Below, piece after piece: positions 1,159 through 57,171 of a stretch of 64,000 nt of DNA (position 1 is its first letter; each line of letters opens with the position of its first letter). The DNA is from Candidatus Hydrogenedentota bacterium (GTDB taxonomy: Bacteria > Hydrogenedentota > Hydrogenedentia > Hydrogenedentales > SLHB01), in assembly GCA_963745075.1 (NCBI GenBank), contig CAVUWV010000013.1, positions 128,001 to 192,000 of the forward strand. Direction: 5' to 3'. The position numbers and the translations under genes were made by a program. The notes beneath the pieces were generated by a model. That model ran no database searches and was not told the DNA's origin. It was given only the letters and a program-made list of their open reading frames with translations.

Positions 1159-4429
<3,271 letters not shown>

Positions 4430-35801: not shown

Positions 35802-37519
35802 TCAGTGCTCCATGACATTCCGGTACCACGCGAAGAACATCAGCAGCGCCCAGAACTGCCGCCGGCGGTACACGTTGTGGCTGGCTGACCGCACGATCGT
35901 TTCCACGATGTGCCATTGGAACAAGCCGGTGGCGTCCACGCGTTCGGGTGTAATCGTGTGATGCGCAACACTCTCAATCACGCGGAGCACCCGGCCACTC
36001 TGTGGGATCTTGAAGCCACGCCGGGCCCGTTGCCGCACCGAGCCGGGAATGCGGTGCTTCAGCGCCAGCCGTAGCAGCGGCTTGCTTCGGACCCCGAACT
36101 TCACGTCGGCCGGCACGCGCAATACAAAATCGACAAGGTCATCGTCCAGGAAGGGATGATGCAACGTGATGCCGTGGGCCGCAGCCACACGGTCGCACTT
36201 CGTCAACAACAGGTTCGGCAGGCCCACCTGCAAATCCAGGGAGAGGACGTTCCGTGTGAGATCCGGCAGCGTGAACGTATCGCGAAGGGGGGAGCGATTT
36301 CGCCCAGTTCGAACAAGGCAGATTTCATCGCGTGCGTATACAGGTCCTCGCGTTCGCCCCGATCGAACACCGACACCAGCGACAAATACGATTCCTGGGT
36401 ATCGCGAATCGCGGCGAGGCTCTGGCTGGCGCGCCGGACAATGGCATTGGGTGGCAGCGCGGGCAACAGATCGCTCACCAATCCGGCGGGCACGAACCGC
36501 TGCGCGCCCCGGGCCTTTTCCAGGTAATGGTACCGGGCGTATCCCCCCAACAGTTCGTCAGCCCCGTGCCCCGTCAGGAAGGTCTTGCCGGCGTCCGCTG
36601 CGGCTTCCGCGATCATCCACAGCGGGAAAACCGATGCCCCGGCAACCGGTTCGTCCAGTTGCCGTACGGCTCGCTGGAACCCGTCCTCCGTAAGACGCCG
36701 CGCCGGGCAAACCGCGATCGGCAACTGCATGCGGCGGGCTGATTCCTTCGCGAGACGCGCTTCATCCTGCCACGAGCGTTCCAGGCTGACAAAGACCGGG
36801 TTGGGAGTGGGGGAAACGGCGGCGAGCGCCGCGCAATCGATGCCCGCAGACCAGAGCAAACCATCGGCCGGCGTACGCCGCACGGCCTGTTCCAGCAGTA
36901 CTCCGATCCGTTCCGCGGCAGCTTCTTTGTGAATGCCCGTGGGATGGGTGTCAAACTTCCAGACGTGGAAATCGAGCAGTTCGCGTCCGTTATACTCAAG
37001 CACGTGCCCCGGGAGGACTCGGCGCGCGCCCTGGACCATCGTCTCCGAACCCGGAACGCAACGTAACGTCAAATAGCGGTCGACCGACAGGAGATCCAGC
37101 CGCCGGGGCACCAATCCCGACGCCAACAGCGCCTTGAGTTCGGACGCGAAGAGGAGGAAATCGTCCCCCTTGAAATAGAAAAGTGGGCGCTGGCCCAGAC
37201 GGTCCCGCATCAGCCACCACCGGCCGTCTTCTTTTCGAGACACCACGGCCGAAAAGGCGCCGCGCAGATGAAGCGTTTGCGGGGTATCGCGATGGCTGCA
37301 ATCCAATCCCAACGCCGCAGCGGATATGTCTTGGTCAGACGAGTCCCGCGGGCATCCATCGAGCAGGCCTGCGGGGGATTCGATGGGATGCGACGCCGCG
37401 AGCAGAAACGCGTCGCCGGAGGCCCGATGGGACACCGTCGCCCTATCCGAAAGTGCAGCCGCCATCGCATCGACGGCCGATTTGTCCTGCTTGCCAAGAA
37501 TCCCGCAGATTGCGGCCAC
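35802..37519 (-). CDS. Asparagine synthetase B-like amidotransferase, degenerate; frameshift near 36270
   Basis: RDRLGQRPLFY, FASELKAL, LTGHGADELLGGY, HPFLD, KPLLR. N-terminus is MAAICGI. Confidence 0.85.
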
Positions 37520-38083: not shown

Positions 38084-38119
38084 TAAAGAAACCCACCGCG
38101 ACTAATGCCGACGGTGGGT
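38084..38119 (-). terminator. Intrinsic terminator downstream of the 24-aa peptide gene
   Basis: ACCCACCG/CGGTGGGT stem followed by TTCTTT on the minus strand. Confidence 0.7.
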
Positions 38120-38159
38120 CTCGACCAGCCCGAATAACAGGATGCGGTGCGGTTCAACC

Positions 38160-38234
38160 TTAGTGCTGAACCGCAGGAAGCAACAATCCAATCAAGATCT
38201 GAATCAATCGAAACAGTAGATCGAAGATGCCCAT
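38160..38234 (-). CDS. 24-aa amphipathic peptide MGIFDLLFRLIQILIGLLLPAVQH
   Basis: Hand-translated. GGAGGT RBS 6 nt before the ATG, TAA stop, upstream promoter and downstream terminator. Confidence 0.7.
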   Translation of the reverse strand: MGIFDLLFRLIQILIGLLLPAVQH

Positions 38235-38333
38235 GATAAAACCTCCCTCTCCTGGGTACCGCCGGTTCGACACCATCGTTTCGTGCGGTACCCTGCGTTG
38301 TTCCCACTGCCATTGCGACTATATCACCTGGAG

Positions 38334-38362
38334 ACTATACAATCGCACACTGAAAATGTTAA
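38334..38362 (-). promoter_or_regulatory. Putative sigma70 promoter of the 24-aa peptide gene
   Basis: TTAACA-17 bp-TATAGT. Confidence 0.6.
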
Positions 38363-38692
38363 CGCAAATCCCCCCGTCGCAGCATAGCCGCTACCAAAAA
38401 GAACGCGCCTGCAGATGGTGCGAGGCACGAAAGGAACCCTGGGGCAACAATCCCTCCCGACTCGCACACAATGAGGAGATGGCCGTCCAACGCAATGAAA
38501 CGGCGTTTCGGACGGCCCTCTCGATATCGCGAATCGTTCGGGATCGGGACTGAATGGCTGGCAGAAGCAAACCGTTCGAGACGCGAAGGATCCGCAGAAT
38601 GATTTACTGAATCGCCATGGGGCAACTTCTCTGTTCCTACACTTCCCGTACAGTGCTCATCCCAGCCGAGACTACGTCCGGCTCTGGTACTG

Positions 38693-38851
38693 TTACGGAA
38701 TCGGAATGTCCTCGATTTTTGCCGCCTTTGGGCTGTCGGCGCTCACGCACTTGACCTTCCCGGTTGGCGTGTATCTGCCGCAGACGGTATCCGACTGCGC
38801 GTAACGGGGAATCATGGTGGGACGCTTGGAAATTCGCTTTGTGTGTTTCAT
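38693..38851 (-). CDS. 52-aa peptide with basic leader and two Cys (MKHTKRISKRPTMIPRYAQSDTVCGRY...KCV...IPIP)
   Basis: AGGAGG RBS about 8 nt upstream of ATG 38851; isolated in an intergenic region. Confidence 0.65.
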   Translation of the reverse strand: MKHTKRISKRPTMIPRYAQSDTVCGRYTPTGKVKCVSADSPKAAKIEDIPIP

Positions 38852-42098: not shown

Positions 42099-43685
42099 TG
42101 TCAAAGCTCGATTAAAATGTCCCCGGTGTTAACTCGTTAGAAATGTCCCCTGTTTTTTGTTTTCTGCTACAGTAGGTGGACTTGGCGGGAGGATAGGGCA
42201 ACGCTGGAGAGCGACCTGAGCGCCCGTCAGGTGGATAGACGGTTCCGGGACAGCCACCCCGGGTGGGGTGGCTGTCCCGGCTTTTTGTAACCGGAATCCT
42301 GCAAAGCGAAAAACTCATTGGTTCTTTCCGATGCCACTGGCCATCATGCCACGCGCCGCTTGCGCCATGGGTGGTCGTGGCGGGGTTTTGGTTTTGATGG
42401 GGGGGTGCTGGCCTTGGGCTTTTTCGCGGCGGGCTTGGCGGGTCTGCACGGCGGTTCGTCGAGTTGTTCATAGTCGAGTTTGTGACCGTTGTACACGAGG
42501 TGAATGCTTCCATCGAGCCAAGTGCGTACGAGGACCTTGTGCTTCGGTTTGGGCAAGTGCTTCTTGGTTTTGTGTATTTGGAAAAAGCGGTTTTGGTGAC
42601 GAACGGTCCAGTCATTGCCCACGGTACGGTACTCTTCAAAGCAGAACACGTCGCGCAGGTCGACGTTCTTGGGGAGCCGACGGTGGAGGTTATGCGTCTT
42701 TTGTGCGGGACGGGCAAACTTTTCGTTGAGGTGGTCGACGAAGCCGTTTTCCAGTAAGGCATTGGTCTGCTCAATGGTGGTGATTTGGCGTAAGCGCAGT
42801 TCGTGGAACAGGCGGTCTTGATAGACGCCGTGATTGCGTTCCACCCGGCCTTTGGCTTGAGGGCTGTAGGCGGTAATGATCTGAATTCCCAGCTTTTTAC
42901 AGGCTTTTCCGAAGCTGGTCAAGGGTTCTTCGTCCGCCAACTGCTCTTCCACCGTCGGTTCGCGCTCCGTGACATATACGGTCTTGCGGTCACAATACAG
43001 CGCCTTGGGGACGCCGTAACGCTCAATCCACTTCCACAGGGTCCGCATGGCAGCCTCGGTGGTTTCTTGGACATCCATCGTAGCCAAGGTACGCCCCGTG
43101 GCGTCGTCCACCAGATTCATCAGACACGCTCGGGGATAGTCGGGACCGAACCAGGCGTGGTGACTGCCGTCGAACTGGACCAACTCTCCGAAGTGCTCCT
43201 TACGCGGCCGCCGCGTTCGATGGGGACCCCGTTTGCGGGCTCGTTGCCAAAGCCCCGCCGCAATCAGCCAGCGCCGCAGCGTCTCGTGGTCCAGCACCAA
43301 ACCCTCCTCCGCCAGCTTCTCGGCCGCCAACGTCGGACCCATGCCCTTGTAGCGCTCCTCGTAACGCGCCAGCACCTTCTCCCGCATTTCCGGGGGCTTG
43401 GCCCGCGCAGACGACTTCCCGCGCCGCCGGTGAACCAGCCCTACATCTCCTTCCCGGCGATACCGCGCATACACCCGCTTACACTGCCGGTAGCTCAACC
43501 CCAGCATCTCCGCCGCCTCACGCAGCTTCAACGCACCACTCTTCACACGATCCAACACCGACTTGCGCGTACGCTCCTTGCGACTCATCAAAATGTCCCC
43601 TTCCACGCAGCCTCCTTTCTAAGGCCGCAACCATGGGGACATTTCTAATGAGTTTTCCAGGGGACATTATCAAAGAGTTTCGACA
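42099..43685 (-). mobile_element. Complete IS1202-family (formerly ISNCY) insertion sequence, 1587 bp, with 16-bp target duplication
   Basis: Imperfect ~50-bp TIRs starting TGTC, each with two AATGTCCCC units. Flanking direct repeats CGGACGAATCGATCTC at 42083-42098 and 43686-43701. Confidence 0.9.
42344..43606 (-). CDS. DDE transposase (IS1202/ISNCY)
   Basis: N-terminal HTH, GELVQFDGSHHAW, DDAT, LYCDR, SPQAKGRVER. Confidence 0.93.
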   Translation of the reverse strand: MEGDILMSRKERTRKSVLDRVKSGALKLREAAEMLGLSYRQCKRVYARYRREGDVGLVHRRRGKSSARAKPPEMREKVLARYEERYKGMGPTLAAEKLAEEGLVLDHETLRRWLIAAGLWQRARKRGPHRTRRPRKEHFGELVQFDGSHHAWFGPDYPRACLMNLVDDATGRTLATMDVQETTEAAMRTLWKWIERYGVPKALYCDRKTVYVTEREPTVEEQLADEEPLTSFGKACKKLGIQIITAYSPQAKGRVERNHGVYQDRLFHELRLRQITTIEQTNALLENGFVDHLNEKFARPAQKTHNLHRRLPKNVDLRDVFCFEEYRTVGNDWTVRHQNRFFQIHKTKKHLPKPKHKVLVRTWLDGSIHLVYNGHKLDYEQLDEPPCRPAKPAAKKPKASTPPSKPKPRHDHPWRKRRVA

Positions 43686-57031: not shown

Positions 57032-57085
57032 GCGGGAGCGTCGCGCGTCGGCTCGGATTTCGTAGTCTTGCTCGGTGTATCCTTT

Positions 57086-57171
57086 GCCCCGAAGGGGCGA
57101 AACATGACAGCCCAGGGCAACGCCCTGGGAAATGTGTTGCCCATGTATGTAAGCCCTGAAGGGGCGAAACA
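57086..57171. repeat. REP/MITE-like element made of three hairpins
   Basis: GCCCCGAAGGGGCGAAACA, then CCCAGGGCAACGCCCTGGG, then GCCCTGAAGGGGCGAAACA. Confidence 0.75.

Follow-up and report, generated by a model that had tools for sequence, protein, structure and literature searches.

Sequence comparison indicates that a 24-codon gene in the window, by which we mean the whole analysed stretch of 64,000 nucleotides, is real and conserved across a genus of Candidatus Hydrogenedentota, and that its peptide is built in two parts, an N-terminal half that drifts and ten C-terminal residues that are invariant. The invariant residues are those of the N-terminal helix of DUF1559 prepilin-like proteins from Planctomycetota. 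This likeness, a mere aside in an earlier reading of the DNA (referred to below as the sequence-only reading), is the defining feature of a small-gene family that annotation has overlooked. Identity and selection are read from the sequence, and we infer that the peptide is translated and located in the membrane.

A conserved small gene between ald and dtd

The window's own genome is called G000 and five congeners of the same genus are called G001 to G005. With the single peptide as query, we found it in 6 of 61 genomes, namely its own and all five congeners, and in none of the 55 genomes outside the genus. The gene is flanked by a divergent alanine dehydrogenase gene (ald) on one side and a D-aminoacyl-tRNA deacylase gene (dtd) on the other, and the ald-dtd interval houses it in all six genomes of the genus. 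The sequence-only reading had proposed looking for the open reading frame (ORF) and its ribosome-binding site (RBS) in relatives: both the ORF and a Shine-Dalgarno (SD)-like word before the same start are conserved in 5/5 congeners. Longer in-frame starts (38 aa) were rejected, as they lack an RBS and are not common to the orthologues. A profile search gave matches in 100 of 135 genomes of the phylum. Outside the genus these were, among the matches listed, mostly long prepilin-type frames, and the leaderless form was not found there among the genomes searched. The exact peptide of the window is absent from about 15 billion predicted proteins.

Between G000 and the five orthologues, pS was 0.74-0.85 and pN 0.06-0.18, the latter within the range of dtd and ald. 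Among orthologues, none of the 11 second positions of codons 13-23 varied, against 9 of the 11 third positions, and codons 2-12 tolerate many replacements while retaining the helical pattern. The window ORF stops at codon 24 and the orthologues, at the conserved locus, at codons 24-29. Four of the five orthologues have 29 aa and extend to ...RIREAA; the alleles of the window and of G005 have 24 aa. Since most orthologues continue, the window allele has been shortened. Orthologues at the same locus and purifying selection at the protein level thus uphold the earlier proposal of a self-contained, unannotated gene for a 24-aa peptide.

The peptide has a GRAVY of 1.56, a best 19-mer KD of 2.09, a net charge of 0 and no leader. 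As the sequence-only reading had predicted, its less hydrophobic residues form one helical stripe: on the wheel, G2, D5, R9, Q12, G16, P20 and Q23 occupy an 80-degree sector, from 20 to 100 degrees, and shuffled sequences seldom attain the hydrophobic moment of 0.45 (p 0.004). G000 contains 36 SD-led hydrophobic ORFs of at most 50 aa, several of them amphipathic, and the window peptide ranks second by moment. Other small hydrophobic, RBS-led ORFs in this genome that look unannotated (Table 1) include a Gln/Leu-rich amphipathic pair and a row of four Trp/Phe-rich peptides; one of the ORFs has a relative in G002.

Table 1. Locations of the features discussed, in window coordinates unless a genome, contig or locus is named
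Feature	Location	Strand	Remarks
Promoter-like site, sigma70-type TTAACA-17-TATAGT	38334..38362	-	10/12 consensus matches
5' UTR hairpin	38252..38293	-	ends just 5' of RBS; arms 38254-38262 / 38285-38293, complementarity 100%; z -3.44
Shine-Dalgarno GGAGGT	38241..38246	-	6 nt 5' of ATG
24-aa peptide gene, amphipathic N-terminal half and pilin-helix motif	38160..38234	-	translation agrees with the sequence-only reading
LIGLLLPAVQ motif, codons 14-23	38166..38195	-	equals residues 16-25 of mature planctomycete DUF1559 pilin-like proteins
Hairpin over stop codon	38147..38175	-	arms 38148-38156 / 38167-38175; z -4.67
Intrinsic-terminator-like stem and U-rich tail	38084..38122	-	stem 38088-38122; z -6.29
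dtd promoter-like site	~38059-38031	-	3' of terminator; dtd thus has its own site
Degenerate copy of peptide gene	38547..38618	-	~300 bases upstream; exact register, E 2.1e-4
Hairpin 3' of degenerate copy	38476..38522	-	z -3.61 for 38470-38530
52-aa two-Cys peptide gene	38693..38851	-	own promoter-like site ~38930-38902
Asparagine-synthase-like gene, split	35802-37519	-	438-aa and 143-aa frames
420-aa ORF	42344-43606	-	presumably transposase-like
Acido-Lenti-1 RNA motif	57085-57129	-	RF01687, 40.4 bits
Second intact family gene, 40 aa	G000:C18:100121-100243	+	
Frameshifted family copy	G000:C24:~381390-381507	+	
Further small hydrophobic ORFs, G000	C14:62224 and 70756 (-); C31:288380 (+); C34:25321-26656 (+); C10:212672 (-)		RBS-led
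Relative of one of these ORFs, G002	L072:7564-7668		
Short prepilin, G001	L063:1431-2078	-	~170 aa; planctomycete-type motif
Three family-like peptides, G005	L054:246-377, 463-603, 2726-2842		flank two repeat-rich genes
Double-glycine peptide rows	L222:1043-7318, L223:2373-8643, L224:6764-7661		L222 and L223 face a cNMP-binding C39-ABC transporter and HlyD

Transcription signals and RNA structure

The promoter, the 5' stem, the RBS, the hairpin over the stop codon and the intrinsic terminator of the sequence-only reading were all recovered (Table 1). TTAACA-17-TATAGT is the top-scoring of four promoter-like sites between 37000 and 39500 (shuffles contained 1.2 sites on average), and a site related to it lies upstream of the peptide gene in all six genomes of the genus, at -182/-184 in G001/G002 and at -321, before a 50-aa neighbour, in G003-G005. 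The terminator-like stem with its U-rich tail is present, though a simple terminator scan did not call the stem. For the predicted whole transcript of the peptide gene, the fold z was -4.57.

Both transcript hairpins come with a caveat, however. The 5' stem is confined to the window genome, and so is the stop-codon hairpin, which sits at a 3' end that was replaced relative to the orthologues. The comparison of flanking sequences in relatives, which had been suggested together with these folds, therefore turned out against them.

These results bear on the possibility of a type I toxin under antisense RNA control. The peptide matches published search criteria for such toxins (size, hydrophobicity, intergenic position and tandem copy, as given in a passage of PMC2887945), being shorter than 70 aa, containing the hydrophobic 19-mer mentioned above and lying in an intergenic stand-alone unit with a tandem (degenerate) copy, and the transcript is structured in the window genome. 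Against this, an antisense promoter is not shared: the weak 8/12 sites of G000, G004 and G005 are unrelated in position or far away, and G001-G003 have none. The sequence and fold of the 5' UTR differ among orthologues, the mean unpaired probability over -16..+3 ranges from 0.26 to 0.53 with no common fold, and the 5' stem of the window ends before the RBS; the orthologues reveal no conserved structure that would hide the RBS. In 5/5 pairs the pS of the ORF equals or exceeds the values of dtd and ald (for only 16-18 synonymous sites), and hence no constraint at the RNA level is visible. In G003-G005, moreover, the peptide gene is second in a two-gene unit. There was no Rfam antitoxin in the window (one Rfam match, far from the locus), no PADLOC match for 13/13 family members, and nothing in Pfam, NCBIfam, PADLOC or the PDB sequences that tied the peptide to a known toxin family, at the limited sensitivity of such short queries. 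We consider an antisense-controlled toxin very unlikely. The earlier suggestion of an undescribed toxin, surfactant or membrane-regulatory peptide is supported as regards an amphipathic, membrane-type peptide, and not supported where it invoked a type I toxin with a structured mRNA.

Other features of the neighbourhood

A gene for a 52-aa peptide with two cysteines lies upstream in the window, and in G003-G005 it immediately precedes the family gene. It belongs to a separate family, which was not found in G001/G002 with the window query and had matches in 9 of 135 phylum genomes, seven of them convincing by eye. As the homologues in G015, G134 and G022 have no motif peptide in about 400 bases downstream, an obligate link between the two genes was rejected.

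Elsewhere in the window, an asparagine-synthase-like gene is split into two frames, and four congeners have a single frame of 572 aa; the split is a frameshift or an assembly error. The window also contains a 420-aa ORF that we take to be transposase-like, and the Acido-Lenti-1 RNA motif, here in a Hydrogenedentota genome.

The invariant half is the DUF1559 pilin helix

An hhalign comparison of the family profile with the N-terminal helix of DUF1559 gave a probability of 98.8 and an E-value of 5.8e-17, and the resemblance of ILIGLLLPAVQ to the DUF1559 prepilin helix, as remarked on earlier, is genuine. LIGLLLPA-Q is invariant in 13/13 aligned family rows, that is, at 9 of the 10 motif positions, with V or I at position 22. 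Pro20 of the peptide corresponds to Pro22 of the pilins (the motif proline was residue 22 in 68/68 complete prepilins taken from loci), and the peptide thus contains the prepilin alpha-1 segment with Pro22. Its start (MGIFD) has no basic leader and no N_methyl match, and we found no class III signal in it. In an AF2 model of a DUF1559 protein, the motif is predicted to lie inside a continuous helix 3-54 (pLDDT 94-98), for which the top Foldseek rows were type IV pilins, with weak scores (E 0.35 or worse). DUF1559 is described, in passages of the papers cited here (PMC2754498, PMC10632474 and PMC4807772), as a large planctomycete family of unknown function, with 74 genes in R. baltica (PMC2754498) and 68 paralogues in P. 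limnophila (PMC10632474).

The form of the motif is planctomycete rather than local. Among the best 80 matches listed, 76 of the 79 motif-bearing genome loci were prepilins by regex, and record titles named Planctomycetota for 74 of the 79. The peptide's motif form occurred in none of 46 host prepilin-like N-termini, in which LAAILLPALARAREAAR was the commonest form, and a detached fragment of a host pilin was rejected on this ground. G000 itself has 29 DUF1559 matches and 7 secretin matches. The genus is not entirely without the planctomycete form, since a short prepilin of G001 carries it. A small secreted-looking protein of G002 (L218) has the motif internally.

Many viral contigs (L153-L187) have full DUF1559 prepilin genes. 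A pattern search of viral sequences gave 35 matches, of which 32 were readable (30 prepilins by regex and two by eye), and the small leaderless form was not among these 32. The metagenome pattern for the leaderless form had one match, within a 605-aa frame.

Paralogues and turnover

The six genomes of the genus contain 16 intact small motif genes (2, 1, 3, 3, 2 and 5), with an SD-like word wherever this was examined. In G000 there are two broken copies as well, the first upstream in the window and the second frameshifted on another contig (C24). The upstream copy is identical to the intact gene at 39/72 nt, has a stop at codon 5 and keeps G16, L17-19, P20, A21 and Q23. At a second locus, defined by the same convergent neighbour in G000, G003 and G005, the site is held by different family peptides and resembles a variable cassette. 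The family shows birth-and-death turnover.

Broken copies would also be expected if abundant planctomycete DNA fragments had been repeatedly recombined into small ORFs, leaving a motif devoid of specific function. Donors with varied codons would be plentiful, as DUF1559 is highly multi-copy in the passages of PMC2754498 and PMC10632474 mentioned above. Such neutral capture does not account for a motif that is unchanged in vertical orthologues, at one locus in 6/6 genomes, despite near-saturated synonymous change; we find it most improbable, and for the window gene the selection signal has already largely refuted it.

Paralogues place further short stretches ahead of the amphipathic helix. For one paralogue N-terminus the best match in the genome was the host GroEL (12/16 identical, E 1e-6), and further paralogues are similar to a strand of secretin, at Pfam E-values of 0.13-0.23 that miss the cut-off. 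Some of the stretches we take to be dockerin-like loops, and an FG-GAP-like resemblance is likewise presumed. The ESM Atlas had no usable match to the 40-aa paralogue. Three family-like peptides of G005 flank two repeat-rich genes (Table 1); in the first of them, the pilin motif is presumably swapped for a stretch like the C-terminal strand of secretins.

The motif outside prepilins

Among 120 listed short relatives, 60 had no prepilin start by regex. Inspected by eye, 15 of the 120 lacked a leader, as the window peptide does, and in about 26 the motif came after a double-glycine leader; two of the latter were from named Bradyrhizobium (including WP_334395626.1). Three double-glycine leaders scored on TIGR03949, one of them over the cut-off, and a Nif11-type precursor also carries the motif. 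For the Bradyrhizobium peptide, the ESM Atlas gave unnamed clusters at 0.91 and 0.89, and a plasmid collection gave no match. In another Hydrogenedentota genus, double-glycine motif peptides occur in tandem rows, with cores that add other DUF1559-like bits, and one core starts with what we take to be a stretch like the N-terminus of Hcp. Such peptides face a C39-ABC transporter and HlyD in G107 and G039 of that genus. The motif is export cargo there and not a pilin remnant. No leader ending in GG or GA was found in the window peptide or its orthologues, and a C39 search of G000 (90% complete) yielded one weak match only, in a 257-aa frame.

The double-glycine cores also inform the question whether the window peptide is a membrane-active peptide in the manner of phenol-soluble modulins (PSMs) or leaderless bacteriocins, with the pilin segment as nothing but a captured hydrophobic module. 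PSMs and leaderless bacteriocins are leaderless peptides of 20-45 aa that form an amphipathic helix and are multi-copy. The hydropathy, moment and neutral charge of the peptide, its missing leader, its multi-copy family and the many small SD-led hydrophobic ORFs of the genome all agree with such a role. Generic membrane activity does not require ten invariant residues at saturated synonymous divergence, however, and the motif is retained in the double-glycine cores, where there is no amphipathic half (moment 0.11-0.14). Among the family members scanned, none matched PSM or bacteriocin models of Pfam or NCBIfam. A plain surfactant or PSM role is insufficient, as it leaves the ten invariant C-terminal residues beside a drifting N-terminal half unexplained, and we regard it as unlikely.

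The motif extends well beyond small peptides. An unindexed protein search returned 10,539 proteins at E <= 0.001. The best 150 of these comprised 135 new ids, 86 of which were not classed as prepilins; among the 86, at least two motif matches (up to 9) were present in 73 and signal-like N-termini (crude regex) in 41, although this ranking favours proteins with multiple copies and the 86 include a few truncated prepilins. Of 30 motif-bearing proteins scanned, three were over the cut-off of the H-X9-DG model, and scores on the Hcp model stayed below cut-off. One family (P0137, alignment A5) consists of Tat-like secreted proteins with four motif copies and a predicted tandem beta-sandwich. In its AF2 model, ILIGLL of the first copy is placed in a beta-strand of the sandwich; a fold search gave generic beta-sandwich rows only (Z up to 8.2), and neither P0137 nor P0134 matched a Pfam family. 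As this first copy is modelled as a strand, the motif may act in a form other than a helix, and its sequence appears to be kept regardless of conformation. By its occurrence in so many other peptides and secreted proteins, the motif is evidently portable and reused.

A motif that is a helix in DUF1559 and, according to the models, a strand in another family might be read as a linear sequence, in any fold, by a reader outside pilus assembly (a protease, chaperone, stress sensor, or predator or phage receptor are candidates). The peptide would then belong to a library of decoys that copy the most conserved segments of abundant proteins. The repeated motif matches and signal-like N-termini of the non-prepilin proteins among the best 150, the H-X9-DG and Hcp scores, and the GroEL-like and secretin-like stretches of the paralogues are in line with this proposal, which explains the use as beta-strand and the latter stretches better than pilin mimicry does. 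However, a motif used as a core beta-strand would be buried in the folded protein, and the likenesses to secretin and Hcp are short and under curated cut-offs. We judge a decoy of this kind rather unlikely.

A proposed membrane-bound mimic of the pilin helix

The explanation that we prefer, tentatively and short of calling it probable, is an amphipathic membrane anchor with a mimic of the pilin helix that competes for pilin-binding machinery. The peptide would be made from its stand-alone gene and held in the membrane by its amphipathic N-terminal half, and the invariant half would compete with the pilin helix for a site that ordinarily receives its Pro22 region. This site may be on a type IV pilus or type II secretion-type assembly, or on a pilin-sensing protein. 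Direct binding of pilins to a membrane sensor is described for PilS-PilA in a passage of PMC6058289.

The target could be in the producer or in planctomycete neighbours. Neighbours are slightly favoured because the motif is in the planctomycete and not the host form, and its service as export cargo elsewhere points slightly in the same direction. The lack of a detectable C39-ABC peptide exporter in G000, at 90% completeness, leaves room for an endogenous target. Counted against a pilin mimic are the missing class III signal, the amphipathic N-terminal half, which is unlike the pilin segment, and the GroEL-like and secretin-like stretches of paralogues, which pilin machinery would not explain. 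The modelled beta-strand in the P0137 family also speaks against it, as do the single weak C39 match of G000, where a target in neighbours is concerned, and the planctomycete-type prepilin of G001.

These stretches would find a place in a broader scheme of mimicry across phyla. The best conserved segments of abundant assembly proteins (the pilin helix and strands of secretin, Hcp and GroEL) would be copied into small peptides and secreted scaffolds, and would jam or decoy the binders of these segments in neighbouring cells, planctomycetes above all. Delivery would take several routes, namely leaderless amphipathic anchors, double-glycine export, and Sec/Tat proteins with tandem repeats. We think such a system conceivable but doubtful; a mimicry library of this kind would be categorically new, if true.

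If the membrane-bound mimic is the correct explanation, a synthesisable peptide of 24 residues and its counterpart in cultivable Bradyrhizobium would offer a probe for DUF1559, and natural peptides would act by copying a conserved protein segment of another phylum, with relevance to microbial competition and to the design of pilus or secretion inhibitors. Whatever the mechanism, a real small-gene family that annotation missed is added, and the portable motif is able to draw profile searches toward a false prepilin label.

Comparison with known systems

The peptide belongs to neither the prepilin nor the double-glycine family, nor to the type I toxins on the features tested, and has no PSM homology. 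Searches of Pfam, NCBIfam, PADLOC and PDB sequences gave nothing above cut-off for family members, and we found no solved structure or family model for them. Openly accessible article text contained no paper on the motif strings, on DUF1559 double-glycine peptides, on truncated phage pilins or on secreted pilin mimics.

Type I toxins (Ibs, Ldr/Fst, TisB and kin) are similar in size, hydrophobicity, intergenic stand-alone gene and tandem copy, whereas the peptide gene lacks a conserved antisense promoter, leader structure and RNA-level constraint. PSMs and leaderless bacteriocins share the size, the leaderless amphipathic helix and the multi-copy state; an invariant pilin-derived tail is not known from those families, and the host here is Gram-negative. 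Among double-glycine peptides (class II bacteriocin type, with TIGR03949-like leaders and C39-ABC export), one set has the window motif as core, but the window peptide has an amphipathic helix in place of the leader.

Phage-encoded truncated pilins and micro-prepilins consist of the pilin helix alone, have been proposed to jam the pilus machinery, and keep the prepilin signal. The peptide is like them in expressing a pilin helix on its own and differs in being chromosomal and in having no prepilin signal; by analogy, it may work like a truncated pilin. Closest in sequence are the DUF1559 / SBP_bac_10 prepilin-like proteins of Planctomycetota (PF07596 with PF07963), whose mature residues 16-25, including Pro22, equal residues 14-23 of the peptide, a likeness that reaches ...RIREAA in its orthologues. 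In contrast to these prepilins, the peptide lacks the class III signal, the FTLxE start, the globular head and the H-X9-DG end, and its N-terminal half is amphipathic where the pilin has an uninterrupted hydrophobic segment.
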